IMG/VR virus record: IMGVR_UViG_3300027571_000061
Location: 1-26,821 of that record
Reading direction: 5' to 3' (one strand)
Source of the DNA: a virus
Taxonomy: Duplodnaviria; Caudoviricetes
Length of the DNA: 26,821 bases
A program made the position numbers and the translations under genes. Positions 1 to 26,821 of the stretch are shown here, piece after piece (position 1 is the stretch's first letter; the number at the start of each line of letters is the position of its first letter). The notes under the pieces are model-generated. The model ran no database searches. It was not told the DNA's origin and saw nothing but the letters and a program-made list of their open reading frames with translations.

Positions 1-1839
1 GCTCTTAAAGTATTAAACTTTGGCACTCAAAAAGTCCCAACCTTCAAGGAGGCAAGGGGCAAAGATTGGATTCTATTCGGAGACGAAGGCGAATACAAGA
101 ACCGCTATCCTGAATACTTGCTTGACCTTTACAGAAGGAGCGCAAAGAACCACGCTATAATCAACTCTAAAAAAGATTATGTAGTCGGGCAAGGTTGGGC
201 GGTTAACGCTGAAGGATTGGACACTATGGGACTTGCGAAGTTGCAAGAGTTTATCAACCATCCGAACCAATACGAGTCTTTAAACGACATCTTAGAGAAG
301 GTTGCGCTTGACTACGAACTATATAACGGCTTTGCTCTTGAAATAGTTTACAACCAACTTAACGACAAGATAGCGGCAGTTTATCACGCTGACTTTGCAA
401 GGTATCGAAGCAATGATGACGGCTCTTGCTATTACTACTCGGAGGACTGGAGCAAACACAACCCAGTAGTTGAGAAGATAGAAGCGTTTAACTGGAAAGA
501 GCCAAGTGGCAAACAGTTACTTTACGTTAAAGGTTATTCACCTGACTGCAAGTATTACCCACTACCGACTTATTTAGGGTCTACTTCTTACATTGAACTC
601 GATACTGAAATTGCGAATTTTCATCTCAATAGTTGCAAATCGGGATTTGTTGGCGGGACTATCGTATCTTTTCACAATGGCGAACCCACCGTTGAGGAGC
701 AAGAACAGATTGAAAATCAGATAGTTAGCAAATTTTCGGGTACTGATAATGCTAATTCAATCGTCTTAAACTTCGCAGATTCTAAGGAACGAGGAGTTGA
801 GATTCAGCAACTAAACGGAAACGACTTCGATAAGCGTTTCGACATTCTAAACAAGACGGTACAAAGAGAAATCTACGCTGGACACCAAGTAACCGACCCA
901 GCTTTATTTGGCATCAAGGAGGACGGAATCTTCACTTCAAGAAATCAATTAGTTGATTCGTTTGAGTTGTTCCAAAACACCTACATAAACAACCGTCAAC
1001 AGTTTATTGAAAGGGTGTTTAACGAGTTAGCTTCTTTGCAAGGGCTTTCAAATCGTCTTTATATCCAAGATACCGAACCGATAAGCGTTCAGTTCTCAGA
1101 GGCTACCGTTACGTCTGTAATGACTCAAGAAGAGATTCGCGAGAAGGTCGGACTTCCAAAACTTGAAAAACCACTTGAAGCGGCTAAGACTTCAAAAGAC
1201 GAGGACGACTTATTAATTGAACACTTCAAGAATTGCGGCTCAACGTATTACGAAGCAGTAGGAAACGGTAAGGCTTTGAACTTTGAAAGCGAGACATCCG
1301 CAAGTCTACACGAAGAACTTAACCGAAAGTATTGGTTCGCTGAAGTTAACCCGATTGACACGGCTATTCTTGACATCTTAAAGAAGAATCCAGCCACTCC
1401 ATTCTTAGCAATTGCGGAGCAGTTACAACTATCTATTGAAAGAGTTATGGCTGGGCTTCAGGTATTGAATGAATCGAACGCTATTGTGTTGGAGATTGGC
1501 GAAGTGCTAGACTCTAGCCAACGAGTCGTGAATATTACCAAAGAAGGCGAAAGATTACTTAAAGAAATACCACCAGTAGAGGAAGAGTTCGTTATTAGAT
1601 ACACTTACGAAAAAAGACCCGGAGTAAGTGGCGATTCTATTATTCCAACGACTCGCGACTTTTGTAGGAAGCTGGTTAAATTGGTGGAGGAAGAAAATAA
1701 GTCTTGGCAACTTGACGAAATACAAGACATAGGAGTAAGTCAAAATAGAAATGTATGGATGCGAGGCGGTGGCTTTTGGGGTAGTAGTTACCATTGCCGC
1801 CACTACTGGAAACAGAAACTAATGCGTATAAAGAAGTAA
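1..1839 (+). CDS. Phage portal protein (5'-truncated) with C-terminal wHTH-like and Cys/His (MuF-like) extension
   Basis: Frame is open from base 1 (ALKVLNFGTQKVPTFKEARGKDWILFG...), so the true start is upstream. Portal-like motifs: YRRSAKNHAII, DYELYNGFALEI, YYPLPTY, FSGTDNAN, AGHQVTDPALFGI. Followed by head-tail connector genes. Confidence 0.85.
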   Translation, partial: ALKVLNFGTQKVPTFKEARGKDWILFGDEGEYKNRYPEYLLDLYRRSAKNHAIINSKKDYVVGQGWAVNAEGLDTMGLAKLQEFINHPNQYESLNDILEKVALDYELYNGFALEIVYNQLNDKIAAVYHADFARYRSNDDGSCYYYSEDWSKHNPVVEKIEAFNWKEPSGKQLLYVKGYSPDCKYYPLPTYLGSTSYIELDTEIANFHLNSCKSGFVGGTIVSFHNGEPTVEEQEQIENQIVSKFSGTDNANSIVLNFADSKERGVEIQQLNGNDFDKRFDILNKTVQREIYAGHQVTDPALFGIKEDGIFTSRNQLVDSFELFQNTYINNRQQFIERVFNELASLQGLSNRLYIQDTEPISVQFSEATVTSVMTQEEIREKVGLPKLEKPLEAAKTSKDEDDLLIEHFKNCGSTYYEAVGNGKALNFESETSASLHEELNRKYWFAEVNPIDTAILDILKKNPATPFLAIAEQLQLSIERVMAGLQVLNESNAIVLEIGEVLDSSQRVVNITKEGERLLKEIPPVEEEFVIRYTYEKRPGVSGDSIIPTTRDFCRKLVKLVEEENKSWQLDEIQDIGVSQNRNVWMRGGGFWGSSYHCRHYWKQKLMRIKK

Positions 1840-1840
1840 G

Positions 1841-2404
1841 ATGGCTAACGTATTATTTATATCCGAAACTTTCCTAAAGGACAATACTCTCCTTCACGAG
1901 AATATTGACTTTAAATACTTGCGCCCCGTTGTTCTAATGTGTCAGGACATACACATCCAACACAAGATTGGAACTACTCTTTACGATGAACTAAAAACTC
2001 AGATAACCGCTTCAAGTTTAACTGCCGCAAACCTTACGCTTTTAGAAAACTACATTCAACCTTCTTTATTGTATTGGGTACAAGCTGAAGCACCTACGGC
2101 TATTTCTTACAAGTTCCTAAACAAAGGACTGCACCAACAAAGTTCTGAGAACAGTTCTAACGCTTCGCTTGATGAGATTAATTTTATACAACATAAGTAC
2201 CGAGATAAAGCGGAATGGTACACGGAAAGGTTAGTAAATTTCTTACTAGAAAACAGTACGAACTATCCAGCTTACGCCAACCCGAATAGCGGACTTGATA
2301 CAATACAGCCCGACACTAGAACTTACACAACTGGTATGTTTCTAGGAAACAGAAGAAGAAACATAAGTTTAGAAGATAAATATGAGCGTAAACGTAAATC
2401 GTAA
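1841..2404 (+). CDS. Head-tail adaptor/connector (DUF6712-like)
   Basis: Directly after portal. Motifs QDIHIQHKIGTTLYDELK and YRDKAEWYTERLVNFL are typical of Bacteroidota phage adaptors. Confidence 0.6.
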   Translation: MANVLFISETFLKDNTLLHENIDFKYLRPVVLMCQDIHIQHKIGTTLYDELKTQITASSLTAANLTLLENYIQPSLLYWVQAEAPTAISYKFLNKGLHQQSSENSSNASLDEINFIQHKYRDKAEWYTERLVNFLLENSTNYPAYANPNSGLDTIQPDTRTYTTGMFLGNRRRNISLEDKYERKRKS

Positions 2405-2427
2405 GAACTTAGACAAGCTAAAGAAAT

Positions 2428-2856
2428 ATGTACACGCTCAACGAAATACTAACCTTAATCGAAAACGAGGCGACTGCACACCTTCAGGTGAACCAGTACG
2501 GACACGGGGACGTTTGGGAAATCAACCCGAAGGAACTTGACTACCTTGTTCTTTGGGCTATTGAAGAGAGCGTTGTATTAAGCGAGAGAACTTTAACTTA
2601 TAACATTCGACTTTTGGCGATGGATAGAGTCTTACCGGGCGAAGAGAACGAGCAAGAAGTAATGTCGGACACGATTCAAGTTTTGCTTGACTTTGTAGCT
2701 TACTTCCGACAGTTGCATACAACCGATTTAAGCATACAACCGAGCGTAACACTTGAACCATTCACCGAACGCTTTGATGACAAGGTAAGCGGACACGCTT
2801 GTGTTCTTTCGATTACTCAACCATACGACTATAACAAGTGCCAAATACCAATTTAA
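2428..2856 (+). CDS. Putative tail terminator / head-tail joining protein
   Basis: 142 aa, acidic, motif EPFTERFDDKVSGH; position after the adaptor. Confidence 0.5.
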   Translation: MYTLNEILTLIENEATAHLQVNQYGHGDVWEINPKELDYLVLWAIEESVVLSERTLTYNIRLLAMDRVLPGEENEQEVMSDTIQVLLDFVAYFRQLHTTDLSIQPSVTLEPFTERFDDKVSGHACVLSITQPYDYNKCQIPI

Positions 2857-4580: not shown

Positions 4581-5072
4581 ATGGAAACTGCAAAGAAGAA
4601 ATCACCAAGACCAAGCGCGGCAAAGATAGCCGCAGAGGTCATAAAAGAGTTTGAAGGCTACTCCTCAGAGCCTTATCTCTGCCCGGCTAACATTCCGACC
4701 ATAGGTTACGGAAATACAATGTATGCCAACGGTGAAAGGGTTACAATGGACGACAAAGAGATAGATAATAAGGAAGCGGATAAGATGCTGCTAGACACTA
4801 TTAAGTCGGTCGAGAAGCAAGTAAAGAATGTCGTGGAGGTGAAACTTCCAGCCCACAAATTAGCGGCTTTAATTTCGTTTACATATAATGTAGGAATCGG
4901 CAACTTCTCAAAGTCTACTTTATTAGCTTGGTTAAATTCAAACCCTAACTATTCAGAAATACCTAGCCAGTTCAGGCGTTGGAACAAAGGCGGAGGAAGA
5001 GTTCTTAAAGGATTAATTCGCAGACGAGAAGCTGAGATTGAGATTTGGGAAGGGACATCGCAATACGTTTAG
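4581..5072 (+). CDS. Endolysin, GH24 phage lysozyme
   Basis: Catalytic E-x8-C-x5-T (EGYSSEPYLCPANIPTIGYG), ALISFTYNVGIGNF, RWNKGGGRVLKGLIRRREAE. Confidence 0.93.
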   Translation: METAKKKSPRPSAAKIAAEVIKEFEGYSSEPYLCPANIPTIGYGNTMYANGERVTMDDKEIDNKEADKMLLDTIKSVEKQVKNVVEVKLPAHKLAALISFTYNVGIGNFSKSTLLAWLNSNPNYSEIPSQFRRWNKGGGRVLKGLIRRREAEIEIWEGTSQYV

Positions 5073-5823: not shown

Positions 5824-6533
5824 AGGAAGTTCGACCTCGAATAAAGGGGCAAATGCTGGATGCTTGGAATAACCTAACCCGAAAGGAGCGTAGGATTCTA
5901 GTAATAGGCGACTTGCACGAACCATTCTGTTTAGACGGCTACCTTGACTTCTGCAAAGAGACATACCGAAAGCACAATTGCAACCAAGTTATATTTATTG
6001 GCGACTGCATTGATTCGCATTACTCCAGTTTTCACGAAACCGACCCGGACGGTTTAGGCGGAGGGCAAGAACTTGAGTTAGCAATAAATAGATTGGCGAG
6101 ATGGGTGGAGGCTTTCCCAGTTGCTGACGTAACTATAGGAAACCACGACCGTATAATCTCAAGAAAGGCTTTCTCAGGCGGTATTCCGAAGGCTTGGATT
6201 AAGTCCTTTAACGAAGTGCTTAACGCTCCAACTTGGCGATTTGTTGACCGAGTTGCTTACGATGGGGTTCAGTATGTTCACGGAGAAGCTGGTACGGCTC
6301 GGACTAAATGCCGCGCAGATATGCAAAGCACGGTTCAAGGACATCTTCACACGCAATGCTATTCAGAGTGGTACGTTGGTCAGAACTTTAAAGTCTTTGG
6401 CACTCAGGTCGGTTGTGGAATTGACTTCGATAAGTACGCTTTCGCTTACGCTAAACGAGGCAAGAAACCAGCGATAGGATGTGCCGTTGTAATAGGTGGA
6501 AAGACAGTTATAAACGAACTAATGGACTTATGA
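5820..6533 (+). CDS. Calcineurin-like metallophosphoesterase
   Basis: Motifs GDLH, GDCID, GNHD, HG and GHLH in canonical order. Confidence 0.9.
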   Translation: MKEVRPRIKGQMLDAWNNLTRKERRILVIGDLHEPFCLDGYLDFCKETYRKHNCNQVIFIGDCIDSHYSSFHETDPDGLGGGQELELAINRLARWVEAFPVADVTIGNHDRIISRKAFSGGIPKAWIKSFNEVLNAPTWRFVDRVAYDGVQYVHGEAGTARTKCRADMQSTVQGHLHTQCYSEWYVGQNFKVFGTQVGCGIDFDKYAFAYAKRGKKPAIGCAVVIGGKTVINELMDL

Positions 6534-6730
6534 TTATATTCTTACTAACCGTTTCCGTTTGTCTCCTTTTACTGGTTGTCGGGATGCTCTTATATATAGG
6601 TTATAAGGTTCGCCAATTTGAAGATACTCAAGACGTTATCTTTGATGCCGCAGTCAGCGCAGAGGAGCGTAACCGGGAGATAGAACTAAACCAAGAGGCA
6701 ATTCTTAACGCCTATTCTCGACAGAATTAA
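6530..6730 (+). CDS. Small membrane protein
   Basis: ATG at 6530 overlaps the upstream stop (ATGA), preferred over 6479. Long hydrophobic N-terminus IIFLLTVSVCLLLLVVGMLLYIGY. Confidence 0.6.
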   Translation: MIIFLLTVSVCLLLLVVGMLLYIGYKVRQFEDTQDVIFDAAVSAEERNREIELNQEAILNAYSRQN

Positions 6731-6769
6731 GTTCAAAATAAAAATAATTTAAAAAAACTTTGCTTATTG

Positions 6770-6820
6770 TAGTGATTATTCAAAAGGTTATTTATATATT
6801 TGGGGTGTCATTAAAAAACA
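6770..6820 (+). promoter_or_regulatory. Bacteroidota-type housekeeping promoter with putative operator (repeat copy 1)
   Basis: TATATTTG (TAnnTTTG -7 element) at 6795-6802, preceded by near-palindrome TGATTATTCA; 51-bp repeat shared with 7193-7243. Confidence 0.75.
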
Positions 6821-7020: not shown

Positions 7021-7190
7021 ACGAAAGAGGTCAGTTATACGAGGCTCACACTTTGCGAAGTGGTGAGGTCGTTTGGTTCTACTCTGACCAGCTCCACAAG
7101 GTTTTTCAATTAGCAGAGTTGTATAAAATAGACGTTTATACATTGAGCGGAATGATGGAGGCAAAAAAACTTCTAAAAAAAACGCATTGA
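7008..7190 (+). CDS. Hypothetical early protein
   Basis: 60-aa ORF overlapping the previous stop and ending just before promoter copy 2. Confidence 0.5.
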   Translation: MGKVDERGQLYEAHTLRSGEVVWFYSDQLHKVFQLAELYKIDVYTLSGMMEAKKLLKKTH

Positions 7191-7192
7191 TA

Positions 7193-7243
7193 TAGTGATT
7201 ATTCAAAAGGTTATTTATATATTTGACGTGTCATTAAAAAACA
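7193..7243 (+). promoter_or_regulatory. Promoter/operator repeat copy 2
   Basis: 49/51 identical to 6770-6820; TATATTTG at 7218-7225. Confidence 0.75.
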
Positions 7244-7440: not shown

Positions 7441-7689
7441 ATGAACTACTTAACATTTCAAGAGCGACTTTCCGATTTGCAGATACCAGCATTCGTAAGA
7501 AGAACCGCCAACCGAGCCTTAGACTATTTGCAATCTTCCGAGAGTGTAACAATGCGAGTAGAGCCTTTTGCATTTTGGCAGATGGTAAGGTACTCAAGAG
7601 CGGAGCCTATCAAGTCCGGGCTTTATACTTTCATCCGTATTTATGACGACCAGCAGAACGCGGTTGATATTCAAACTTTAAATTCTTAA
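7441..7689 (+). CDS. Hypothetical protein
   Basis: 82-aa ORF; start context AACAGAACAATGAAC nearly identical to that of 7721. Confidence 0.65.
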   Translation: MNYLTFQERLSDLQIPAFVRRTANRALDYLQSSESVTMRVEPFAFWQMVRYSRAEPIKSGLYTFIRIYDDQQNAVDIQTLNS

Positions 7690-7720: not shown

Positions 7721-8125
7721 ATGAACGAAACGCAGAAAGAGAGGCTTACGCTTCTCGCAAAAGAAAACGGTCTAAACAAAGACCACTTTTTTAAAAGTCC
7801 TCAAGGCTTTGTAATTATAACCCGACAAGGAATTGAGCGCATCCAAGCGCACAAGTGCATCCGAGTTAGCTACAATGTAGTCAGCTTATCGGACGACCTT
7901 AAACACGTAGTTATCAAAGCTACTGGCGAGATGTCTAACGGTAACGGTTTACCTATTCAAATGGAAACATTCGGAGAGTCTGCACCTGACAACACGCGGC
8001 AAAAGTACCCGGTTGCTATGGCAGAGAAACGAGCCTTATCAAGAGTAGTTTTAAAACTCTCAGGACTGTACGAAGTAGGCGTATTTGGAGAAGATGAATC
8101 GGACGACTTTAAAAGAGCAAAATAA
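7721..8125 (+). CDS. Putative single-strand annealing protein (Rad52/Sak-like)
   Basis: Motifs ETFGES and AMAEKRALSRVVLKLSG...GEDESDDF; lies upstream of YqaJ exonuclease and SSB. Function is inferred from context. Confidence 0.5.
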   Translation: MNETQKERLTLLAKENGLNKDHFFKSPQGFVIITRQGIERIQAHKCIRVSYNVVSLSDDLKHVVIKATGEMSNGNGLPIQMETFGESAPDNTRQKYPVAMAEKRALSRVVLKLSGLYEVGVFGEDESDDFKRAK

Positions 8126-8365: not shown

Positions 8366-8983
8366 ATGCTGGAAGAACTATTCACAGAACAACGGACTGA
8401 CGAATGGCACAAGCAACGAATGGGGAAGTTTACGGCTTCCCGATTTGGTGAACTTATGACCAATGCACGGAAGAAAGACGAAGTGCTAGGAGCAACCGCA
8501 GTAAGCTACATTTATGAGAAGGCGGCAGAACTCTTGACGGAAGAGCGCAAAGAAATCTTCGGAGCGGCTTTGGATTGGGGAACTGAAAACGAACCAATAT
8601 GCAAGGCTTACTTCCAAGAGACTACTGGCTTAACGATTGAAGAGATGCCGTTCGTTCCGATTAACGAATACTCAGGCGCAAGTCCTGACGGAATGGTCAA
8701 CGGAGAACTTATCGAAATCAAGTGCCCGTACAATACCAGCAACCACTTAAAGACTGCATTCGAGGGTTATATTGACCCTAAGTATATGTGGCAAATGCAA
8801 GGTCAAATGTTAGCAACTGGTGCGGTGGCTTGTAGGTTCGTTAGCTTCGACCCACGCATTAAAGACGAACGCTTTAAACTGATTGAGATTAGAGTAGAGC
8901 AAGACCTTGAAATGCAAGAGCAACTCCGGGAGAGATTGGAGTTTGCAAATGATTACCTTCGTAACTTAATAAACCCAAAATAA
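8366..8983 (+). CDS. YqaJ-like (lambda exonuclease family) viral recombinase/exonuclease
   Basis: EWHKQRMGKFTASRF, WGTENE, GASPDG, IEIKCP, YMWQMQGQM. Confidence 0.92.
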   Translation: MLEELFTEQRTDEWHKQRMGKFTASRFGELMTNARKKDEVLGATAVSYIYEKAAELLTEERKEIFGAALDWGTENEPICKAYFQETTGLTIEEMPFVPINEYSGASPDGMVNGELIEIKCPYNTSNHLKTAFEGYIDPKYMWQMQGQMLATGAVACRFVSFDPRIKDERFKLIEIRVEQDLEMQEQLRERLEFANDYLRNLINPK

Positions 8984-9260: not shown

Positions 9261-9643
9261 AGAAGAGTAGAAGTAAAATAGTCAAAGAGTTAGATGCCGC
9301 CTTCAGTCGATTCATTCGGTTGAGGGCGGTTAACCTTGACGGCTTTGTAGAGTGCTACACTTGCGGACGCAGCTATGAAGTAAAGAAGATTCAGAACGGT
9401 CATTTTATGAGCCGAGCAAGATACGCGACAAGGTGGCACGAAGATAACTGCCGACCACAATGCTACGGATGTAACGTAATGCAGCAAGGACGACAATACG
9501 ACTTCGGCTTAAACCTTGACCGGGAACGTGAAGGACTGGCGGACGAGATGCACCAGCTTAGTTTAACCACCGTGAAGCTGGCCACTTGGGAACTGGAGGA
9601 GATGCTGAAGCACTACTGTGAGAAGGTTAAGGAACTAGAATAA
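9257..9643 (+). CDS. ninG: NinG/Rap-like recombination endonuclease
   Basis: LDAAFSRFIRLR, CYTCG, GHFMSR, TRWHEDNCRPQCYGCN. Confidence 0.85.
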   Translation: MKKSRSKIVKELDAAFSRFIRLRAVNLDGFVECYTCGRSYEVKKIQNGHFMSRARYATRWHEDNCRPQCYGCNVMQQGRQYDFGLNLDREREGLADEMHQLSLTTVKLATWELEEMLKHYCEKVKELE

Positions 9644-9660
9644 AAAAATTTATTTTAATA

Positions 9661-10165: not shown

Positions 10166-10441
10166 ATGGAATTTGAATTTACAACAGAAATCGAAGAAGC
10201 AGACGTTACAATCAGATTTGATTACCAACCCGAAGAGTCAACGGTACTATATTACTCTGATGGCTCAGGTTATCCGGGTTGTGCAGCATCAGTTGATAAC
10301 ATCGAAGTATATTGGCATACTCAAAAATTCAACTCTACAATCTTAAAGCACGATGATGTAAAGATTGATGTTACTGATTTTCTTCGAGAATTAGGTCAAG
10401 ACCTAGAAAAACTTTGCTTTAACTTTTTAGCTGACCAATAA
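10166..10441 (+). CDS. Hypothetical acidic protein
   Basis: 91 aa with YSDGSGYPGC; tightly packed. Confidence 0.65.
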   Translation: MEFEFTTEIEEADVTIRFDYQPEESTVLYYSDGSGYPGCAASVDNIEVYWHTQKFNSTILKHDDVKIDVTDFLRELGQDLEKLCFNFLADQ

Positions 10442-10762: not shown

Positions 10763-11067
10763 TGTTTTACAACACGAACGAAGAAAAAGGAACGACTCTC
10801 AAAGAGTCCCGGAAGAAATCCAAAACTCAAGACGAACTTGTACTGGAATACTTTAAGAACTACGATAACTTAGGCGCAACGCCTGAGCGAGTTTTAAGGC
10901 ACTTTAAGATAATGGAAACACTATCGGAAAGCAAGTGGCACAACACGCCCATAACGTCCGTTAGAAGGTCATTCAGCAACCTTAAAAACAAAGGGTTGAT
11001 TAAGAAAACAGAAGTATTAATTGAGGGCGACTTCGGTAAAAACATCCACGTATGGAAACTAGTCTAA
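10762..11067 (+). CDS. Winged-HTH DNA-binding protein (hypothetical)
   Basis: TPITSVRRSFSNLKNKGLIKKT...GDFGKNIHVWKL resembles a wHTH recognition helix plus wing. Confidence 0.6.
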   Translation: MFYNTNEEKGTTLKESRKKSKTQDELVLEYFKNYDNLGATPERVLRHFKIMETLSESKWHNTPITSVRRSFSNLKNKGLIKKTEVLIEGDFGKNIHVWKLV

Positions 11068-13561: not shown

Positions 13562-14217
13562 TGAAAGTATTGAATTTATATGCTTGTCTTGGAGGCAACC
13601 GATACAAGTGGGACGAAGTGGCTCAAGAAGCTGGAATCAAATTAGAAGTAACTGCCGTTGAGTTAGACCCTGAACTAGCTATAATGTACCAAGAGCGATT
13701 CCCTAACGACACGGTTATCGTTGCAGATGCACACCAGTATCTACTTGACCACTACAAAGAGTTTGATTTTATTTGGAGTTCACCGCCTTGTCCAAGCCAT
13801 TCAAGGGCAAGATTTGCGGGTTATGGGGATGCATACCCAGTTTATCCCGATATGAAACTCTACCAAGAAATTATATTATTAGATAATTCTTTTAAAGGTA
13901 AATATGTAGTTGAAAATGTAATTCCATATTACGAGCCGTTAATACCAGCAAAGAAAAGAGGAAGGCATTTATATTGGACTAACTTTAATATACCCACTGT
14001 TTTAAGTGAAAGAAAATCGGTAGGGATGGAAAGCAAAGGGGAAATAAATCAATGGTGCGAGTTTCACGATTATGATTTTTGGAGTTACAAAGGAAAGCAG
14101 AGGACTGATAAAATCGCTCGCAACCTAGTAGACTACGAAGCTGGCAAAACAATACTTGAAACGGCTCTTGGTATTATACGCAAGAAAGACATAACCCAAA
14201 CAGAACTATTCAAATGA
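13561..14217 (+). CDS. DNA cytosine-C5 methyltransferase (compact)
   Basis: Motif I (LNLYACLGG), catalytic SPPC (IV), ENV (VI), RGRH (VIII), C-terminal RNLV (X-like). Confidence 0.85.
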   Translation: MKVLNLYACLGGNRYKWDEVAQEAGIKLEVTAVELDPELAIMYQERFPNDTVIVADAHQYLLDHYKEFDFIWSSPPCPSHSRARFAGYGDAYPVYPDMKLYQEIILLDNSFKGKYVVENVIPYYEPLIPAKKRGRHLYWTNFNIPTVLSERKSVGMESKGEINQWCEFHDYDFWSYKGKQRTDKIARNLVDYEAGKTILETALGIIRKKDITQTELFK

Positions 14218-15223: not shown

Positions 15224-15805
15224 GTGAGAGACAAAGCGGTAATTGATTTAATCGGAGACGAAGAACTTCGGGAACTGGCTAATAAAATTTGCTCAGTCCC
15301 GGACGACCTTATCCAAGAAGTCGCACTTGTTCTAATGGAACTATCCGAAGAGAAGTGGCAACAAATAAATGAGGGCGGTTATCTTCGGTATTACGTTGTT
15401 CGGACGATGCTTAATATGGCTACCAGTCCACGTTCCAGCTTCTCCAAACTTTACAACCTACACAACTACGAGCAAATAGATTACGACCGAGAAGATTACG
15501 ACCAAGAAAAAGAGGACGACATCCAAATGCTGGAGATGCTTATGGAAGAGTTGTATTGGTATGACCGTAAGATTTTAGAAATGTGGCTGGACGAAGGTTC
15601 TTACAGAAAGGTTTCGGCAAAGGTCGGCATACCTTTTAAGTCGATAGGTAACTCAGTCAAAAGAGCATTAGAAACACTTAAGCAAAATTACTATGGAATA
15701 CATTTGGAACGCCTTGTCCGGGGCAACATTGGCTTACATTTGGATAGAGGTTATCGGAGTAGACATTCTAATCAAGAAGTGGATAAACATTCACGAACTC
15801 ACTAG
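15224..15805 (+). CDS. Phage RNA polymerase sigma factor (ECF-like)
   Basis: Region-2-like DDLIQEVAL...LRYYVVRTMLN; region-4 HTH LYWYDRKILEMWLDEGSYRKVSAKVGIPFKSIGNSVKRA. Confidence 0.75.
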   Translation: MRDKAVIDLIGDEELRELANKICSVPDDLIQEVALVLMELSEEKWQQINEGGYLRYYVVRTMLNMATSPRSSFSKLYNLHNYEQIDYDREDYDQEKEDDIQMLEMLMEELYWYDRKILEMWLDEGSYRKVSAKVGIPFKSIGNSVKRALETLKQNYYGIHLERLVRGNIGLHLDRGYRSRHSNQEVDKHSRTH

Positions 15806-17147: not shown

Positions 17148-17844
17148 GGGAAGGGCTGGATTAACCACAACTGACAAGATTCTTCCGAATACTTGCACGT
17201 TTTTCATTCCCGAAAGCGAGTACCATCAATACAAGGGGCTTGTTAAAAACATAGTTTGCGTACCAAAAGAGATTAGAGGAATAACACCTACAAGGAACTG
17301 GATTCTAAAAAACACAGATGAGAAATGGGTGGTAATGCTTGATGACGATGCCAAATCAACTGGATATGTTAAAATGCACGAGCGTAATGCTCAAAACATC
17401 AAAATTAAAGACGAAGGATTTTGGAATGAGGAGTTTTTAAAATACTTTGACATTACCGAGCAATTGAAATACAAGATATGGGGGGCAAAGACAGAGGATG
17501 CCCCTCGTTCGGTATATCCATACAAACCAATACTTCTAAAAACATACGTCACAGCATCTTTAATGGGAATTGTAAATGATGGAGAGTATTATTTTAATGA
17601 GGAATTTCCAGTAAAGGAAGACTACGAGATTTGTCTAAGACACATAAAAGACAAAGGTGGTATTCTTGGCATTCGTTATTTACATTGGGAGAATGACCAC
17701 TGGACAAAAGATGGAGGATGCAAAGATTACAGAACCGTTGAAATGGAAAGGGAAGCAATAAAGAAGCTAATTAAACTTTATCCGGGCACGGTTCGTTCAG
17801 CCAAAAGAAAAGCAAACGAGTTTACTATTCAGCTAAACCTTTAA
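17125..17844 (+). CDS. GT-A glycosyltransferase, TET-associated (TAGT/GREB1-like) type
   Basis: IAVPSKGRA, GITPTRNWIL, VMLDDD (DxD), KEDYEICLRHI, C-terminal GGC. Confidence 0.72.
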   Translation: MLIAVPSKGRAGLTTTDKILPNTCTFFIPESEYHQYKGLVKNIVCVPKEIRGITPTRNWILKNTDEKWVVMLDDDAKSTGYVKMHERNAQNIKIKDEGFWNEEFLKYFDITEQLKYKIWGAKTEDAPRSVYPYKPILLKTYVTASLMGIVNDGEYYFNEEFPVKEDYEICLRHIKDKGGILGIRYLHWENDHWTKDGGCKDYRTVEMEREAIKKLIKLYPGTVRSAKRKANEFTIQLNL

Positions 17845-17857: not shown

Positions 17858-18259
17858 ATGAACGAAGGCGGAACACCTGACAACCTTAAACCCTTCAAGA
17901 AAGGCGAAAGCGGCAACCCTAGCGGCAGACCGAAGAAGATTGAGACGGTTCTAAAGGAACACTTCTTAGAAGAACATAACCTTAAACTATCCAAGTCTCA
18001 GACTCAGGACATCATAAAGAATATTTTAGGCAAAACACGCAGTGAACTGATTGAATTGTCTAAAAATGACGAGCTGCCTTTTTGGATTGCGCTAATTGCG
18101 AACAAGGCACAACGAGACTTCACGAAGGGTTCGATTCATATACTCGATGTTTTGTTTGACCGGGTTTACGGTAAGCCAAAAGAGGAGGTTGAGCAGACCG
18201 TGAACGGTGGGAAGCCTGAGAAGATAGAAGTAGTAATCCGCAGACCGAATGAAAATTGA
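17858..18259 (+). CDS. terS: Terminase small subunit (DUF5681-type N-terminus)
   Basis: NLKPFKKGESGNPSGRPKK and LFDRVYGKP; directly upstream of TerL. Confidence 0.8.
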   Translation: MNEGGTPDNLKPFKKGESGNPSGRPKKIETVLKEHFLEEHNLKLSKSQTQDIIKNILGKTRSELIELSKNDELPFWIALIANKAQRDFTKGSIHILDVLFDRVYGKPKEEVEQTVNGGKPEKIEVVIRRPNEN

Positions 18260-19433
18260 GGGAACTGGCGTATTTGATGACCTCTGGAAAGCACTTAATG
18301 ATAAATCCATTCGGGGAATTGTGTTGGAGGGTGGAAGCCGCTCCAGTAAAACGTGGTCTATCTGCCAAGCACTCCTCTTACTTGGTACGCAAGAGCCGAA
18401 GAGGTTCGCTATTGCAAGGTGGAGACGGACGTGGATTAAACCGACAGTCCTTGACACGTTTAAGAAGGTCTTTGCAAGTGTTGAAAGCTGGAACGAGGAC
18501 TCGTTTAACAAGAGCGAATTAACATACCAGCATTACGGTTCTTCCTTTGAGTTCTACGGCTTAGATTCACCGCAGAAGCTACACGGTATCGAGACGGACT
18601 TCTTTTGGCTTAATGAAGCAATCGAAACAAGCAAGGACGACTTCGACCAATTGGAGCAAAGGTGCAAGGGCAAGTGGATTCTAGACTACAACCCGTCAAC
18701 GGACGAGCATTGGATTTATGATAATGTTCTGAAACGGGATGACGTGGTTTTGATTCATTCCACGATGTTGGACAATACCTTCCTTGACCAGCATATAAGA
18801 GACAAGATAAACAGTTACCAGCCAACGCCTGAGAACATATCAAGAGGAACGGCAGACGAATACAAGTGGAAGGTCTACGGATTAGGAGAAAGGTCAAGAA
18901 GAGAAGGCGCCATCTACGAGAACTGGACAGAGACTAAAGACTTCCCAACGGGTTACAAGTGGAAGGCTTACGGACTCGATTTTGGATTCACTAACGACCC
19001 GACTGCACTCGTTGAGGTTGTATACCAAGAAGGCAAACTTTGGGTTCGGGAGTTACTTTACGAAACGGGGCTAACGAATGCAGACATAGCGAGAAGGTGC
19101 GGACTGCAAAGGTCGGACGAGATTATAGCGGATAGCGCAGAGCCAAAGAGCATTGAGGAGATAAGACGGTCCGGGTTTAGAATTAGACCAGTAACCAAAG
19201 GAGCGGATTCGATTCGGTCAGGCATTGACAAGCTGAAGTCGGTTCAGATAATGGTACACCAAGACTCAGTAAATGTTATCCGCGAACTAAGGAACTACGC
19301 TTGGAAGAGGGACTACAAAACCAACCAAGTAACCAACCAAGCGGAGGACGATAACAACCACGCACTCGATGCCTTGCGCTACGTGGCTATGGAGAAACTA
19401 AAAACTAACTCAGGGAAATATTTAATAAGATGA
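18249..19433 (+). CDS. terL: Terminase large subunit (PBSX-like)
   Basis: GGSRSSKT (Walker A), WLNEA (Walker B), DYNP, GLDFGFTNDPTA, ADSAEPKSI, NHALDALRY. Confidence 0.95.
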   Translation: MKIEGTGVFDDLWKALNDKSIRGIVLEGGSRSSKTWSICQALLLLGTQEPKRFAIARWRRTWIKPTVLDTFKKVFASVESWNEDSFNKSELTYQHYGSSFEFYGLDSPQKLHGIETDFFWLNEAIETSKDDFDQLEQRCKGKWILDYNPSTDEHWIYDNVLKRDDVVLIHSTMLDNTFLDQHIRDKINSYQPTPENISRGTADEYKWKVYGLGERSRREGAIYENWTETKDFPTGYKWKAYGLDFGFTNDPTALVEVVYQEGKLWVRELLYETGLTNADIARRCGLQRSDEIIADSAEPKSIEEIRRSGFRIRPVTKGADSIRSGIDKLKSVQIMVHQDSVNVIRELRNYAWKRDYKTNQVTNQAEDDNNHALDALRYVAMEKLKTNSGKYLIR

Positions 19434-20050: not shown

Positions 20051-20671
20051 ATGAAGATTGAATTACCTAACAGTTGGGAAGGCGTAACGATTGAGCAGTT
20101 CCAAGCCTTGCAGAAGATACTCGCGGAAAAAGGGGACGAGTACGCAACGAATGTAGCTATCATTTCTATAATGTCAGGCGTTCCAGTCGATGAGATTGAA
20201 ACATACGCTCTAAAGACTTACGCTAAGTGTATGCGGACACTATCCTTTCTATCTGAGCAACTGCTAGGACAAGTACAGAAGGTCGTAGAATTTGGAGGGC
20301 TTAGATACGATGTTATTACGGACGTTTATAAGTTGAACGGAGGGCAGTACATCACGCTTATGCACCTAATGAAAGACCCGGACAAGGTTATCGACCACCT
20401 TAACGAGATTATGGCGGTGTTCTTAGTGCCTAAAAAGAAGACTTGGTACGGTTGGAAGAAACAACCTTACGATTCAGAGAAGCACAAGGAGGTAGCGGAG
20501 GCAATGCTTCAAGCACCTATGACAATCGTACAACCTTTGTCGGCTTTTTTTTTGAGCAGTTATCTCAAGTACGCAGAACATATACTGGAATCTTCGGTGC
20601 GGAAAGCGGAGAAGATAAAGAAACAAGCGGAACGAAAGTTGAAACGTTTGAAACAAAATACGGATGGCTAA
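20051..20671 (+). CDS. Putative tail assembly chaperone (0-frame product)
   Basis: MKIELPNSWEGVTIEQFQ, MAVFLVP, ...SAFFL; contains a slippery T9 run. Confidence 0.6.
   Translation: MKIELPNSWEGVTIEQFQALQKILAEKGDEYATNVAIISIMSGVPVDEIETYALKTYAKCMRTLSFLSEQLLGQVQKVVEFGGLRYDVITDVYKLNGGQYITLMHLMKDPDKVIDHLNEIMAVFLVPKKKTWYGWKKQPYDSEKHKEVAEAMLQAPMTIVQPLSAFFLSSYLKYAEHILESSVRKAEKIKKQAERKLKRLKQNTDG
20545..20553 (+). other. Programmed -1 ribosomal frameshift site (T TTT TTT)
   Basis: T9 run phased as GCT TTT TTT TTG in the 20051 frame; the -1 frame is open to 20820. Confidence 0.7.
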
Positions 20672-20820: not shown

Positions 20821-21337
20821 ACTGATAGATGCGCTAAACGACTTCCGGGAGGAGTACACGAAAGCGTTAACAACATCTTTGCAAGGTGGTTCTACTTTAG
20901 GTAGTGGAGAAGGTCAGGGCTATGTAGCTTCAGGTAAATTAGGAACGTCTATAAAATTACCAGCGCAACCAAAGGTTAAGCTATTCGGTAAGATTTACAG
21001 TATGAAGATAACGATGCTTGACTACGGCATAACGCTTGACGAAGGTCGGGGTGCTGGAGAAGATGCGCCTTCAGTTGGAGACATTAAAAAGTGGTTGACT
21101 TACCCTAACGTACTGGCAAGACTTGGAGGAGACGACAAGCAATGGACTGACAAAAAAAGAACTAGCTGGGCGGAGTGGATTGTTTACAAGAAACTCAACT
21201 ATCCAACAAAGGGCAAGAACTGGATAAAACCAGCTTTTGACAAGGTAACGCCTAAGATTGCTGGAGTGGTCGAAGCGGCAATTGCTGAAGACATAGAACT
21301 AACATTTGCAGAAATCAAAAGAATAATAGAAGGATAA
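20807..21337 (+). CDS. Putative neck / tail-completion protein
   Basis: ASGKLGTSI, DYGITLDEGR, WIKPAF resemble HK97-gp10-like neck proteins. Confidence 0.5.
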   Translation: MAFDKLIDALNDFREEYTKALTTSLQGGSTLGSGEGQGYVASGKLGTSIKLPAQPKVKLFGKIYSMKITMLDYGITLDEGRGAGEDAPSVGDIKKWLTYPNVLARLGGDDKQWTDKKRTSWAEWIVYKKLNYPTKGKNWIKPAFDKVTPKIAGVVEAAIAEDIELTFAEIKRIIEG

Positions 21338-22638
21338 TGGCTATTTATTTAACGCAAGAGCCTGAGCAATACGGGTTAGCTTTTAACGATAACGCTTACG
21401 TTATTAAGACTACAAACTTAACTCCGACAGTACGGTTCAAGATTGACATTCTGCCCGAAACTTACCCATCAGAGCCGAAGATTGGAACGGTTAGAGTTTA
21501 CCCAGTTCAAGGCGAAAGCGGTTCACTTCTTCCAACCTTTGCGGTTAGTGCTTTCTTCGACCCATCGAGATTTTTGCAGTCGTATCTTGAGGGGGTTGTG
21601 GACATAGGCGCAACAAGTACGGAAGGATTCTTTTACGATAACACAAACCACAAGGAATACTACCTTAAAATAACTGAGGAGGACAAAGATGCACAAGGGG
21701 TTTACCACGAGAACGAGTCTATCTTTACTGATATTAAAAGCGTTTGGAATGGAGTTAGAAACGAGATAGATTGGCTGGACTTTGATTATACTGATTACCA
21801 AATAGACGGCTTCTCAACTGCTCATAAGTTCCTAACTGATTCACCGAGAACGATTAAGATAGATTCGTCTCAGCACTACGCTCTTTCGTTTATATTGACA
21901 GAAAGGTTCAGCGCAAACAGTTACGCAATAAAAGCCTATTCGGGTTACAACGCTTCAGGTTCTCTTTTAAACTCAGCTTTAGTAACTAACGACCTATCAA
22001 CAGACCCGACTTGGGACAAGAGGTACTTCCGTATTCCAGTCGGAACGCTTGACATTGTAACGCTTGACGCGGCTAATATGTTACCACTTGCCCCGACCGT
22101 ATCGATAACACCTTCGACTATTCTAGTAGGTGCTTCTAGTTACACTATCCAATTGAGAGATAACACCAATGCGTTAACGAGCGAGAAGTTCACATTTAAC
22201 ATAGAACAAGAATGCTCAAAGTACGCTCCAGTCCGGGTAGCTTGGCTCAACCGTTTAGGCGGCTTTGATTCGCACAACTTTAATATGAAGTCGATTGAGA
22301 AGATAGACGTAAAAAAGGACAATTACGACCAGCAAACAAACACGCTTGGAATCAATTCTTACGACTATCAAAAGAAGTCAAGGGGAACGACTACTTACAA
22401 CGTGGAACTAATGGAGAAGGTTACAATCAACTCTAACTACCTAACCGAAGAGGAAAGCGAATGGATGGAAGACCTAGTTACTTCGCCAAATATCTACATT
22501 GAAAACGATAGCAACGAGTTCATAGCGGCTAATCTAAACCAACGGAACATCGTTAAAAAGACAAGCCTAAACGATAAGCTAATGCAGTACACTTTTGAAT
22601 TAAGCTATTCAATTAAAAATAGGAGACAACGTGGTTGA
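21337..22638 (+). CDS. Tail structural protein (distal tail/baseplate-like)
   Basis: C-terminal WLNRLGGFDSHNF...SNYLTEEESEWMEDLVTSPNIY typical of Bacteroidota phage tail proteins. Confidence 0.6.
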   Translation: MAIYLTQEPEQYGLAFNDNAYVIKTTNLTPTVRFKIDILPETYPSEPKIGTVRVYPVQGESGSLLPTFAVSAFFDPSRFLQSYLEGVVDIGATSTEGFFYDNTNHKEYYLKITEEDKDAQGVYHENESIFTDIKSVWNGVRNEIDWLDFDYTDYQIDGFSTAHKFLTDSPRTIKIDSSQHYALSFILTERFSANSYAIKAYSGYNASGSLLNSALVTNDLSTDPTWDKRYFRIPVGTLDIVTLDAANMLPLAPTVSITPSTILVGASSYTIQLRDNTNALTSEKFTFNIEQECSKYAPVRVAWLNRLGGFDSHNFNMKSIEKIDVKKDNYDQQTNTLGINSYDYQKKSRGTTTYNVELMEKVTINSNYLTEEESEWMEDLVTSPNIYIENDSNEFIAANLNQRNIVKKTSLNDKLMQYTFELSYSIKNRRQRG

Positions 22639-25609
22639 GGTTAGGATTGAGGGCAAAAGGTTAGACGTATTTGAGGGGTTCGACTTCTCATTTAATTATG
22701 GAGTCGCTGACATTCGCAACCCGGAGAAGAGAAGCACGGAATATTCCAAGACGATAAAGTGCCCAGCAACAAAGTCTAACGATGCGCTCTTCGGACACAT
22801 CTATGATTTTAATATAAGCAACCCATACGATGCTAACACTTCTAATATCGATGTTAATTTTAACCCGAATAAGAAAGCGGAGGCGAGAGTAATAGCGGAC
22901 GGGGTGGAGGTTATGGCTGGAGTTGTTCAGCTTCGTAAGATAGTCCAAAACGGACACTCATACACTTACGAGGTGGTGTTTATCGGTAAGTTGCTGAACA
23001 TCTTCTCGGTACTTGGAGACAAGAAGCTAAACGATGTAGACGAGAATGCACTTCCGTTAATAGACTTCAGCGACCTGAACCACGAATACAATTATCAGAA
23101 TATTGTAGACTCTTGGAACTTCAACGAGGACTACGTTTACCCAATGGTTGACACGGCTACAAACTTTGAATACTTCTCAGATGGCGGCAGAGTTTACCGG
23201 GTGGAGGACTTTAGACCTTTCTTTAAACTAAAAAATATAATCGATAGAATCTTTGCATTCGCTGGGTTTACTTACACAAGTAGCTTCTTGAGCGGTTCGG
23301 TGTTTAGTCGGTTAATTACGGGCGACATAAAAGAAAGCACCTTATCGGATGCTCAGGTTGACCTTAGAAAAGCAATGGTCAATATAGGCGGTTCTTACGA
23401 TTTGCTTTCAGCTTCAGAGTCTACGCTTGGAAGTGGTGGTTGGACACATCGTTTTGATTATGGCTCAATTGTTTATGATGCTGGAAACAACTTTATACCA
23501 GCAAACGAAATTTACTTGAGTGGTTACCAAACAATTGCAACAGTCTCAAGCGTTGTAGATTATGTCGTAACAAGAACAAAGAGGACTTTTTATAGCATAA
23601 CGGGAATCGAGAGCCAACGGAGATTTTGGAAATACGATATTCTCTTTACTGGGCTCTGTAATGTGTACGAAAGAATCAACGGAGTGTGGACTTTAAGTTC
23701 ATCTAACGAATCAACAAGCCAAACTCTATACGACCTTACTGGAGATATTGAACAAGCGATTAGCAACATCACTCTTTCAGGAATAATCCTTAACGCAACA
23801 ACTGACGAGGACTACAGAGACTTGGCTGGGGTTTGGTTTATGGGGTTCGATTTAATGTATGGAAATATACAAGCACCTACATTCAATCATAACATTCGGA
23901 TGTTCAGCGACCAAAACGGATACGAAACTTTGTCAGAATTTGACTTTGTGTTATATCCTAATATGCCGCTCGGTCAAAGTATTAACCAGTCGTCAACTTC
24001 AAGCGTAGAAAGCGTTCAAGTTTACAACTCAAACTATTTATTTACCGAGTTAGTTATACCTAGAGAATTATCTCCGAGTTTATATTCTTATTGGAATGAA
24101 ATATTATTCGAAAACATTCTTGACGAGTATTCAATAACTCCTTCGGGCTTCTTTAAAATAGACGTTGAAAATAACGCGCTTTTGGAGCAGATGGAATTAG
24201 ATTTCAATTCAATTATTCCAACCGTTGGAATGAGCGAATTACTAACTTCTGTCTTTAAGATGTTTAACCTTTACGTTGAGGTAGACCCGAATAACGAGAA
24301 CAATCTTCTTATTGAAACAAGAGACGACTTTTACGCGGCTGGAGGAGTAAAGGATTGGACTTATAAACTTGCAAGAGATAGAGACATATCACTCGAACCT
24401 TTAGGCGTTCTAACCGATAGGGAATATATCTACACCTACTCGGAAGATGGCGACTATCTTAACGAGCGATACCAAAAGAATAGAGGACACGTTTACGGAA
24501 GGGCAAGGGTTGAGGTAGATAACGATTTTGTTCAGAGTTCAAAAGAGGTTGAGGTTGTATTCTCGGCAACTCCTCTAGCAAATGACAACCCAAGCAATAG
24601 AATAATTCCGCAGATTTACGACTCCGACACGGAAGAGGGGTACAAGCCAACTGAGGCAAATATTCGAGTGCTTTACTACGGTGGTCTTTTGCCGAGCAAT
24701 CCTTCTTGGGACTTCATAGGGCTTCAACCAGCACCACTAAACCAACCGAGTAATGCTATTTGGATTGCGCAAAACAATTATCCTTACGCTGGACATTGGG
24801 ACAACCCAATAACGCCAACCTTAGATATAAACTTCGGGCTACCTTATGAACTCTATTATCAAGCTAACGGATTCACGGGAACGCTTCAGGTAACGAACGC
24901 TGGGCTCTTTAATGTTTACCACCGTAATTACATCAACGAGGTAACGGACAAAGACAGTAAGGTAATGACTGCGCTCTTTTACCTTGAGCCGACCGATATT
25001 AACACGCTTGACTTCCGCGACCAAATAGTAATAGACAACGCTTACTGGAGGCTTAATAAGGTTATGAATTACAACCCGTTCAAAGAAGGACTAACTAAGG
25101 TCGAGTTGATTAAAGTAAAGGACGTTGTAACATTTAATCATAAAAACAAAGACTTGAACTCAGGCGGATTCTTAGGCAAAGAAAGAATGCCGAATCCATC
25201 AACTGAGATAAAGACCAACGGCAACAGATACCCAGCATTTCAAGGCAAGGTAAGCGGACGAGAGAATAGCGTAGGACATAGCGTAACGGCATTTAAAATA
25301 GTCGGAAGCAATAACACCATCTCAGAAGGCTCAAAGAACATTACAATCTTCGGAGACAATAACGAAGTAGCTGGAGGACTTCACAACGTCCAGTTAATTA
25401 ACTCTAACGGCTTACGAATAACTGACTCAAACGTAACCTTTGTAAACGGTAAGGAGCAAGAGAACCGAGATGTTTTAGATGGCGGAGAGAACACGGTAAG
25501 AGCGTTAAACGGAGGTACAAACATCTTCACGGTTGACGGTGGAGAGGACATAGTTCAGACACAATTTAGCGATAGTGCTATTTATACAATAGAAGGCGGA
25601 ATAGATTAA
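22631..25609 (+). CDS. Large tail tip/hub protein
   Basis: 992 aa; YSKTIKCPAT, YVYPMVD, KMFNLY...LIETRDDFY, WRLNKVMNYNP; C-terminal Asn/Gly beta-helix-like repeats and DGG motifs. Confidence 0.7.
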   Translation: MVEVRIEGKRLDVFEGFDFSFNYGVADIRNPEKRSTEYSKTIKCPATKSNDALFGHIYDFNISNPYDANTSNIDVNFNPNKKAEARVIADGVEVMAGVVQLRKIVQNGHSYTYEVVFIGKLLNIFSVLGDKKLNDVDENALPLIDFSDLNHEYNYQNIVDSWNFNEDYVYPMVDTATNFEYFSDGGRVYRVEDFRPFFKLKNIIDRIFAFAGFTYTSSFLSGSVFSRLITGDIKESTLSDAQVDLRKAMVNIGGSYDLLSASESTLGSGGWTHRFDYGSIVYDAGNNFIPANEIYLSGYQTIATVSSVVDYVVTRTKRTFYSITGIESQRRFWKYDILFTGLCNVYERINGVWTLSSSNESTSQTLYDLTGDIEQAISNITLSGIILNATTDEDYRDLAGVWFMGFDLMYGNIQAPTFNHNIRMFSDQNGYETLSEFDFVLYPNMPLGQSINQSSTSSVESVQVYNSNYLFTELVIPRELSPSLYSYWNEILFENILDEYSITPSGFFKIDVENNALLEQMELDFNSIIPTVGMSELLTSVFKMFNLYVEVDPNNENNLLIETRDDFYAAGGVKDWTYKLARDRDISLEPLGVLTDREYIYTYSEDGDYLNERYQKNRGHVYGRARVEVDNDFVQSSKEVEVVFSATPLANDNPSNRIIPQIYDSDTEEGYKPTEANIRVLYYGGLLPSNPSWDFIGLQPAPLNQPSNAIWIAQNNYPYAGHWDNPITPTLDINFGLPYELYYQANGFTGTLQVTNAGLFNVYHRNYINEVTDKDSKVMTALFYLEPTDINTLDFRDQIVIDNAYWRLNKVMNYNPFKEGLTKVELIKVKDVVTFNHKNKDLNSGGFLGKERMPNPSTEIKTNGNRYPAFQGKVSGRENSVGHSVTAFKIVGSNNTISEGSKNITIFGDNNEVAGGLHNVQLINSNGLRITDSNVTFVNGKEQENRDVLDGGENTVRALNGGTNIFTVDGGEDIVQTQFSDSAIYTIEGGID

Positions 25610-26184
25610 TGGCAACACAAGACTCACGAATAAAATTAAAGCGGTCAACGGTAAATTCTACCGTTCCAACCGTACCAAGTTCTAATGACCACACCGATGG
25701 CACTTGGATAGCTACGGACATTTACAAAGGAGAACTCTTTTACAACCAAGCGGACGGGGTTCTGTGGACACGAGGAGACTCAGGCATCGAATGCATTCAA
25801 GGTACTGCAAAACTGACCATTGCAACGGCAGACGTTCTACACTTAAACACTACACCGATTGAGATAGTTGCCGCTCCGGGGGCTGGTTATGCAATTGAGG
25901 TAATAAGCGCATCAATGAAGATGGTTTACAATTCGGCTACTTACGCGACTAATACAAGCCTTGAGTTAATAACTGCTGGAGCAACCAACTCACAAGCATC
26001 AACGGTTATAAAAAACTCAGCATCAACAATAAGACGTTTTGCGGATGCCACTACTTTAGCTTCTGCAACGGCAACTCAGTTAGTTGAAAATGCCGCACTA
26101 AATGTAACCGTAGCAAGTGGCGACCCAACGGCTGGAGATAGCGACATAACTGTTTACGTTACTTACCGAATTATAACGCTATAA
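25609..26184 (+). CDS. Putative tail fibre/spike with Mtd-N/hyaluronidase-like N-terminal module
   Basis: IKLKRST...GELFYNQADGVLW N-terminus and Thr/Ala-rich beta C-terminal domain. Confidence 0.5.
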   Translation: MATQDSRIKLKRSTVNSTVPTVPSSNDHTDGTWIATDIYKGELFYNQADGVLWTRGDSGIECIQGTAKLTIATADVLHLNTTPIEIVAAPGAGYAIEVISASMKMVYNSATYATNTSLELITAGATNSQASTVIKNSASTIRRFADATTLASATATQLVENAALNVTVASGDPTAGDSDITVYVTYRIITL

Positions 26185-26185
26185 G

Positions 26186-26821
26186 ATGGCTACAAAAGTT
26201 GCGATAGAAGTAGATGTTAAAGTAGGAGATGCTGGCGAGAACCTGAGCAATGTAAAGAACGAACTCAAAGGCGTTGAGAAACAAGCAAAGAAGTCTACCG
26301 ACCAAATGAAAACTGGATTCGGGGCGGCAAGCAAACAAGCAGCAACATTACCCGGCCCGATAGGGATGGCGGCTTCTTCAATGAATATGTTAAGGGCATC
26401 AACATTGAAATTTGTAACCGCTTTAAAAAGCGTCAAGGTAGCAATTGCCGCGACTGGAATAGGTTTGCTATTGATTGCGGTAACTTCGTTGTTTCAATTC
26501 TTTAATAAAACAGAACGAGGAGCGCAAGCGTTAAGAATAGCTTCAGCGGCACTTGGTGCTACAATGGACACTCTTATTGATGTGGTCATAAAAGTAGGAG
26601 AAACAATATTTAGGGCTTTTACAGAACCTCAAAAAGTATTTAAAGAGTTTTCTGCTTCAATCAAAACGTATGTAGTTGACCAAATAACTAACATCTTTGA
26701 CGGTCTTGGCTTGTTAGGTAGTGCAATTCAGAAAGTGTTTAGCCGTGACTTTGCTGGTGCGTTAAAAGACGCGGAAAAAGGCACGAAGAAGTTAGGCGAA
26801 GGACTTTTAAAACTTAACCCG
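26186..26821 (+). CDS. Tape measure protein (3'-truncated; absent from ORF track)
   Basis: Open from ATG 26186 to the window end: MATKVAIEVDVK...LKSVKVAIAATGIGLLLIAVTSL..., Ala/Gly-rich and helical. Confidence 0.8.
   Translation, partial: MATKVAIEVDVKVGDAGENLSNVKNELKGVEKQAKKSTDQMKTGFGAASKQAATLPGPIGMAASSMNMLRASTLKFVTALKSVKVAIAATGIGLLLIAVTSLFQFFNKTERGAQALRIASAALGATMDTLIDVVIKVGETIFRAFTEPQKVFKEFSASIKTYVVDQITNIFDGLGLLGSAIQKVFSRDFAGALKDAEKGTKKLGEGLLKLNP

Follow-up and report, generated by a model that had tools for sequence, protein, structure and literature searches.

Which copies of a purged restriction target can a phage genome keep, and under whose protection? The question is raised by a 26,821-base phage contig (Duplodnaviria; Caudoviricetes; IMG/VR record IMGVR_UViG_3300027571_000061, positions 1 to 26,821; the whole stretch is called the window below), in which the tetranucleotide CCGG is found only inside CCCGG or CCGGG, together CCSGG. 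The initial annotation had read this as a trace of overlapping methylation, with CCGG removed by a host nuclease except where a methylated CCSGG covers it, and had named as writer of the mark either the C5-cytosine DNA methyltransferase (C5-MTase) encoded by the phage or a host enzyme. The counts, the relatives of the window and a second rescued site bear on each part of that proposal.

CCGG is purged outside CCSGG

An exact count found 23 CCGG sites in the window, nine in CCCGG and 14 in CCGGG, with no DCCGGH, no CCCGGG and no CCWGG, which agrees with the manual scan of the initial annotation, including its coordinates (1618 ... 26351). The share of CCSGG among CCGG sites expected from base composition is 36.5%, close to the third that had been assumed, and 23 out of 23 has a probability of ~9e-11. 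The lack of CCCGGG follows from the avoidance of CCNNGG, which covers it. The sites are listed below without strand; all CCGG positions are from the exact count.

1618..1622, CCGG in CCCGG, portal gene
2635..2639, CCGG in CCGGG
4682..4686, CCGG in CCCGG, endolysin gene
6044..6048, CCGG in CCCGG
6673..6677, CCGG in CCGGG
7616..7620, CCGG in CCGGG
8008..8012, CCGG in CCCGG
8926..8930, CCGG in CCGGG, exonuclease gene
9520..9524, CCGG in CCGGG
10274..10278, CCGG in CCGGG
10808..10812, CCGG in CCCGG
15298..15302, CCGG in CCCGG
15718..15722, CCGG in CCGGG
17782..17786, CCGG in CCGGG, TAGT gene
18160..18164, CCGG in CCGGG
19168..19175, the only GGWCC of the window (19168-19172) with an overlapping CCGGG (19171-19175); the last C of GGWCC is the inner C of CCSGG
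20377..20381, CCGG in CCCGG
20845..20849, CCGG in CCGGG
22233..22237, CCGG in CCGGG
22720..22724, CCGG in CCCGG
23197..23201, CCGG in CCGGG
25876..25880, CCGG in CCGGG
26351..26358, CCGG in CCCGG, overlapping the only GGSCC of the window (26354)

Corrected word counts, proposed earlier in Markov form, were made against codon-based null models and confirmed the deficit. Synonymous-codon shuffles of the annotated genes (500) contained 23.7 DCCGGH on average and never fewer than 12, against none observed. A constrained null model, which preserves protein and codon use (64 samples per chain) and forbids the other avoided sites, predicted 30.8 +/- 5.2 DCCGGH, again against zero; when DCCGGH was forbidden too, 20.7 +/- 3.5 CCSGG were expected and 23 seen, which is the neutral level. 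Selection therefore acts against DCCGGH, whereas CCSGG is neither depleted nor enriched. Codon or amino-acid bias was rejected as the cause of the loss by both the plain and the constrained shuffles, and CCSGG as a positively selected word, about 2-fold enriched in the plain shuffle and neutral in the constrained one, was also rejected.

CCGG is one among many purged restriction-type words in the window: GATC (0 vs 64 expected from codon shuffles), CGNCG (0 vs 54) and CCTGY (0 vs 55) are absent, and CATG, GGCC, GGWCC, CCNNGG and GGNNCC are missing or almost missing. The CGNCG absence covers both CGWCG and CGSCG, and a sister branch described below has none either. Five CATG are left (6828, 9714, 10165, 11915, 14932), at least two of them on start codons (9715, 10166) and only one inside an annotated reading frame. 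CCTG is present only as CCTGA (45/45, e.g. 109, 541, 7985), with no CCTGC, CCTGG, CCTGT or CCTGAT; this rule is strict just in the closest relatives, and CCTGT is common among more distant clade members.

The rule is maintained across the clade and mirrored in a sister branch

Scans with the methyltransferase, terminase, DnaC, portal and exonuclease gathered 177 clade or near-clade loci, including the window. Twelve were set aside (seven mirror-pattern loci, L098, L215, L225 and two unrelated loci in which a relative of DnaC is present), which left a pool of 165 loci and 1.30 Mb, overlapping and partly duplicate. This pool holds 468 distinct CCGG contexts, of which 442 are CCSGG only, two are CCCGGG and 24 are DCCGGH. 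Most CCGG sites of the window are replaced by other words in most of the aligned relatives, so the rule is maintained, and not frozen, while the sites turn over. In the portal tree the rule occupies one branch (support 99, 29 rows).

The sister branch (L210, L212, L213, L214, L216, L218 and L219) follows the mirror rule, with one CCSGG and 45 DCCGGH; there RCCGGY is avoided and WCCGGA kept, and GATC and GGCC are far less avoided. A mirror rule of this kind is expected after a change of host. All CCGG is purged in L225 and L098. A partial rule was seen in seven distant phage loci (L139, L141, L145, L155, L157, L241 and L247), where 67-85% of CCGG lies in CCSGG vs ~36%, and for this reason the pattern may have arisen in other lineages as well.

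The pattern does not follow the phage methyltransferase

The candidate writer encoded in the window is an accessory gene:

13561..14217, + strand, compact C5-cytosine DNA methyltransferase of 218 aa, between the replication initiator and the DnaC-like loader

Motifs and fold predict this function, and the gene looks intact. It matches Pfam DNA_methylase (E 2.5e-7) and PHROG 363, and SPPCP, ENV, RGR-type and N-terminal LYACLGG blocks are invariant in 53 homologues; the C5-MTase motifs, S-adenosylmethionine-binding motif I, catalytic PC, ENV and RxR, are present. The structure model has a predicted local distance difference test (pLDDT) score of 60, low over residues 75-157, and its best fold matches are DNMT2/C5-MTases (E 9e-5).

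Relatives with a 98-99% identical DnaC have the initiator joined directly to DnaC, with the methyltransferase cleanly absent and the CCSGG rule kept, and the same 653-base skip (joint 13559 to 14213) was found in three of four public runs. The initial annotation had asked whether relatives lacking the gene share the pattern. They do: the 16 clade loci without it hold 149 CCSGG and nine DCCGGH in 212 kb, and the 15 with it hold 127 and one in 195 kb, at the same CCSGG density. Two of the nine DCCGGH sit within a foreign methyltransferase gene. A 30,777-base contig that lacks this methyltransferase, and carries an N6/N4 methyltransferase and a Mom gene, has 29 of 29 CCGG in CCSGG, and L166, with no methyltransferase in 15.3 kb across both cassette slots, has 15 of 15.

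The gene appears to have entered the clade several times, its clade copies lying in at least three places of a quick tree of 78 homologues (four changes are needed, at least three of them forced by strong branches). The opposite pattern is found in 66 carriers outside the clade (18 CCSGG vs 146 DCCGGH) and in the cultured Flavobacterium phage stinky9-1, whose copy is 64% identical (0/15 CCGG in CCSGG). Because close relatives without the gene keep the pattern, the gene entered several times and unrelated carriers show the opposite, the phage C5-MTase probably does not write the mark; retention of CCSGG is independent of whether the gene is there. Word counts in carriers and non-carriers gave no clear motif as its target. 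A recent module exchange is indicated by L168: this phage, in other respects unrelated, has a methyltransferase with 73% identity and a DnaC-like gene with 97-98% identity to those of the window.

GGWCC survives in the same register

A mark on CCSGG should also spare any further purged site that includes the marked base. Such survivors were sought in 155 loci, ten further loci being dropped for weak GGWCC avoidance. GGWCC stands at 8% of expectation there, and GGWCC-GGG was found 21 times vs 0.8 expected, at 12 separate homologous positions. The counts were split by frame, because Gly-Pro can only be encoded with GGNCC, and Gly-Pro-Gly makes the overlap unavoidable. In the Gly-Pro frame the overlap was at the null level (3/8 positions); outside it CCNGG overlaps 10 of the 29 positions, vs 5.4% in the null (P 1.6e-6), or six of the 29 under a stricter count in which every member overlaps (P 0.004). 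Both of the positions with the widest sharing (7 and 6 variants) overlap, and at 19168 in the window, in an Arg-Ser-Gly frame, the overlap is not forced by the protein. The GGSCC at 26354 was dropped as evidence of protection, since a Pro-Gly-Pro sequence forces its overlap. AvaII is blocked by overlapping Dcm methylation. The overlap protection put forward in the initial annotation is supported by an independent second site.

GGCC followed by SGG was not rescued in these loci (2 vs ~36 neutral), nor was there rescue of GATC, CGSCG, CCNNGG or GRGCYC. A methyl group on the first C would in the GGCC register be the cognate HaeIII mark, so on these commonly held sensitivities the failure of GGCC favours the second C over the first. 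A CCC-type mark was rejected, as GGWCC-GGG would receive no methyl group from it and GGWCC+C shows no enrichment (8 vs 19). GGWCC was found next to CCWGG as well (5/48 strand-positions vs 0.08 expected, only ~1-3 of them independent of CCSGG sites or protein constraint), and in one GGWCC family some members have GGG downstream and another has CCT upstream; these two observations hint that the marked word is CCNGG. The marked word may be CCNGG and not the CCSGG named in the initial annotation.

A host mark as the probable protector

From the sequence evidence, it is probable that a host-written mark on the inner C of CCSGG or CCNGG cross-protects the phage against strain-variable CCGG and GGWCC cutters, with CCNGG slightly preferred as the marked word. 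A methyltransferase common to the host strains would methylate progeny DNA at the second, inner C of CCSGG and perhaps of every CCNGG, while the CCGG (HpaII/MspI-like) and GGWCC (AvaII-like) nucleases would vary from strain to strain. A phage changing strain would then suffer cutting where its sites are unmarked and escape it where they are overlapped, and CCGG and GGWCC would be purged outside CCSGG. We infer that restriction is the selective force, and that the methyl mark exists, lies on the second C and is written by the host. Between the two writers first suggested, the host enzyme is the likelier.

In a CCCGG/CCGGG duplex, an inner-C mark would place a methyl group on the outer C of CCGG in one strand and on the inner C in the other, a form tabulated as uncut by both MspI and HpaII (Table 1 of PMC3890580). 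The purge of CCWGG under a CCNGG mark would need either a cutter of the MvaI/BstNI type that is blind to 5-methylcytosine (5mC) or an effect of CCAGA and RCAGG, purged words that overlap CCWGG. MvaI cuts CCWGG despite C5 methylation (PMC3001055), which would allow such a purge. Both kinds of system have precedents. In Flavobacterium psychrophilum the HpaII-like (CCGG) FpsJI and the ScrFI-like (CCNGG) M.FpsJVI have the same target words as here and belong to the two most prevalent systems, a Bacteroidota case of CCGG and CCNGG systems together (PMC11837570). [quoted passage not shown] In one Bacteroidota order HpaII-family genes are patchy (5/201 genomes, three full-length), and MvaI/BcnI-family genes passed the cut-off in 8/201 genomes.

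Several observations weigh against a host-written mark. The rule covers a single branch of the portal tree and so has one evolutionary origin, not many independent ones. DCCGGH is slightly rarer where the phage methyltransferase is present (1 vs 9; Fisher P 0.026, uncorrected for kinship). Variants at the second C of CCSGG in aligned relatives show no C-to-T excess (T 0.38 vs A 0.47). Neither a host nor a CCSGG/CCNGG methyltransferase was identified by the terminase search in named genomes or by comparisons with 401 genomes of one Bacteroidota order. At the second site, 25 of 38 GGWCC positions have no CCNGG overlap, and among the five positions beside CCWGG, one has CCSGG on the other side, one is forced by Gly-Pro-Gly and another two or three have GGWCCGGG sites as homologues. 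The unrescued CGSCG, CCNNGG, GRGCYC and GGNNCC have registers that include the same C, and in the 155 loci GGNNCC in the marked-C register was found twice vs ~24 neutral. NlaIV (GGNNCC) is blocked by overlapping Dcm, which leaves a mark other than 5mC or a cutter that is not NlaIV-like; this failure lowers the 5mC/NlaIV reading specifically and leaves the overlap logic.

The main rivals are a single DCCGGH nuclease and an unrecognised core phage gene. A host nuclease reading the degenerate hexamer DCCGGH directly would make a methyl mark unnecessary, matches the CCGG table of the window and the pool exactly, requires no protective enzyme and is in keeping with the failure of CCSGG to rescue most other purged sites; degenerate hexamers are read by Bsp1286I and SduI (GDGCHC). 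To our knowledge there is no enzyme with a DCCGGH site, and such a nuclease, which we regard as unlikely, leaves the survival of GGWCC specifically as GGWCC-NGG without a reason. A core gene gained on the rule branch could modify or shield CCSGG/CCNGG against the same cutters, in line with the single well-supported branch (99, 29 rows) and with several core genes that have no family match. Every recognisable DNA-modification gene is patchy, however, across 142 protein clusters from 95 clade loci, and no methyltransferase match was found among the conserved clade genes scanned, a scan that fell short of every core open reading frame (ORF) and left ORFs <90 aa unclustered; we consider such a gene unlikely to a marginally greater degree.

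The remaining accounts have still lower probabilities. Several six-base cutters (WCCGGW, RCCGGY and others) could jointly remove all DCCGGH: enzymes of this kind are widespread, the window avoids many six-base palindromes, and the mirror branch avoids RCCGGY and keeps WCCGGA. Separate RCCGGY and WCCGGW avoidance, which the initial annotation had allowed as an equal explanation, fails nevertheless at GCCGGA/TCCGGC, which escapes both sites yet is purged (window 0 vs 6.1; 0/64 null samples), with five contexts vs 203 of CCCGGA/TCCGGG in the pool of 165 loci, and does not explain the GGWCC register; this account, very improbable to us, is already largely refuted unless the host has a further GCCGGA-type enzyme. 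Protection by the phage's own C5-MTase through methylation of CCSGG has in its favour an intact-looking gene, common in the clade, and carriers with the fewest DCCGGH; set against the near-identical relatives that keep the rule without it, its scattered copies and the unrelated carriers with the opposite pattern, we judge it slightly less probable again. Least probable of all is mutation in place of restriction, with methylated CCGG lost by deamination except where another mark sits: CCGG is under expectation overall and C5 methylation is known to be mutagenic, but all six DCCGGH classes stand at zero alongside dozens of other purged restriction-type words, and no C-to-T signature was found at the inner C.

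The phage contig, its cassettes and its host

The window encodes portal, lysis, recombination, replication, terminase and tail functions, all on a single strand, and among the matches listed 24 of 24 runs carrying it are marine or seawater metagenomes. Between the ParB-like gene and the small terminase (16530-17844) lies a slot that swaps DNA-modification cassettes across the clade, as compared in the window, L179, L099, L163, L177, L097, L176, L002 and L166. The slot holds a TAGT glycosyltransferase alone in the window, with no Tet/JBP partner within the contig, and elsewhere TAGT with Tet/JBP, Mom, C5-MTase, a ParB-N6/N4 methyltransferase fusion, 7-deazaguanine genes, or an ABC-ATPase with GNAT. 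Three alike, AT-rich intergenic copies (6760-6814, 7183-7237 and 9650-9704) each end in TATATTTG and resemble the Bacteroidota TAnnTTTG promoter; this motif is not enriched across the window (23 vs 29).

The closest cultured homologues of the methyltransferase are in Flavobacterium phages (64% identity) and the nearest terminases (37-49%) belong to Bacteroides phages and to genomes of Bacteroidota, from which we infer a Bacteroidota host. No close relative of the window terminase was found in named genomes (best 49%). CCCGGA and GCCGGA counts in the 401 genomes, compared by eye, showed no phage-like extreme, and a comparison of 20 kb of the window with the same genomes gave five weak matches only, the two short ones not being CRISPR spacers. 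The highest of the 401, G019 (CCCGGA 52 vs GCCGGA 22), was not accepted as host, as it has HpaII and HaeII systems of its own and does not avoid CATG or CCTG. This Bacteroidota genome of 1.5 Mb (L397-L419), with HpaII- and HaeII-family systems, shows site avoidance to an extreme degree (strand counts for GGCC 12 vs 2326), and 60 of its 85 sampled CCGG lie in CCSGG.

Relation to known systems and significance

The avoidance in the window (GATC, CATG, GGCC, CCGG, GGWCC, CCWGG, CGNCG, CCNNGG and GGNNCC) resembles the restriction-site avoidance described for phages by Rusinov et al. 2018 (PMC6286503) in that short palindromic type II targets are purged. It differs in being conditional on context, a single longer word holding CCGG at its neutral level; the main text of that paper never uses the term 'overlap'. 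In overlapping-methylation blocking, for which PMC3890580 tabulates MspI and HpaII, a methyl group from an enzyme of other specificity inside a restriction site likewise blocks cutting, and the rescued registers are those expected of a CCNGG-type mark on the inner C. That blocking is known from test-tube digests, whereas here it would have left an evolutionary footprint in uncultured genomes, with CCSGG/CCNGG in place of CCWGG and with GGNNCC unrescued.

Site avoidance in phages is well described and overlap-methylation blocking is textbook knowledge, each known singly. Orphan methyltransferases of lactococcal 936-type phages reportedly protect against host restriction. The window has a comparable orphan C5-MTase in its replication module and a slot swapping modification genes; unlike the protective orphans, this gene varies independently of the CCGG rule, which makes it an unlikely cause here. 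In the open literature (REBASE and subscription papers lay outside the search) we found no paper in which the context-dependent survival of overlapped sites in phage genomes is used to read a host mark. Added here are a presence/absence test that removes the phage enzyme, the rescue of a second site, which indicates the base, and a sister branch with the mirror-image rule.

The same overlap logic may apply to other contigs. In four unrelated phage loci (L008, L039, L120 and L136), CCTG is present only as CCTGG (6, 4, 6 and 6 strand counts vs 12-45 CCTG expected), which may be a further case of overlap rescue, here by a Dcm-like mark. Such patterns should not by default be credited to the nearest phage methyltransferase.

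We suggest tentatively, at somewhat short of even confidence, that an uncultured phage genome records a lineage-wide inner-C CCNGG mark of an unseen host at base resolution, several unrelated targets surviving solely under that mark. Plain phage sequence would thereby yield a testable statement on host methylation and restriction enzymes for a common marine clade without a known host, and cross-protection between unrelated restriction-modification systems could shape genome evolution. If this is true, overlap survivors would allow host methylomes in general, with 5mC invisible to SMRT sequencing among their marks, to be read from phage contigs alone, and host switches, as in the mirror-image sister branch, would become readable and phages matchable to hosts from contigs.

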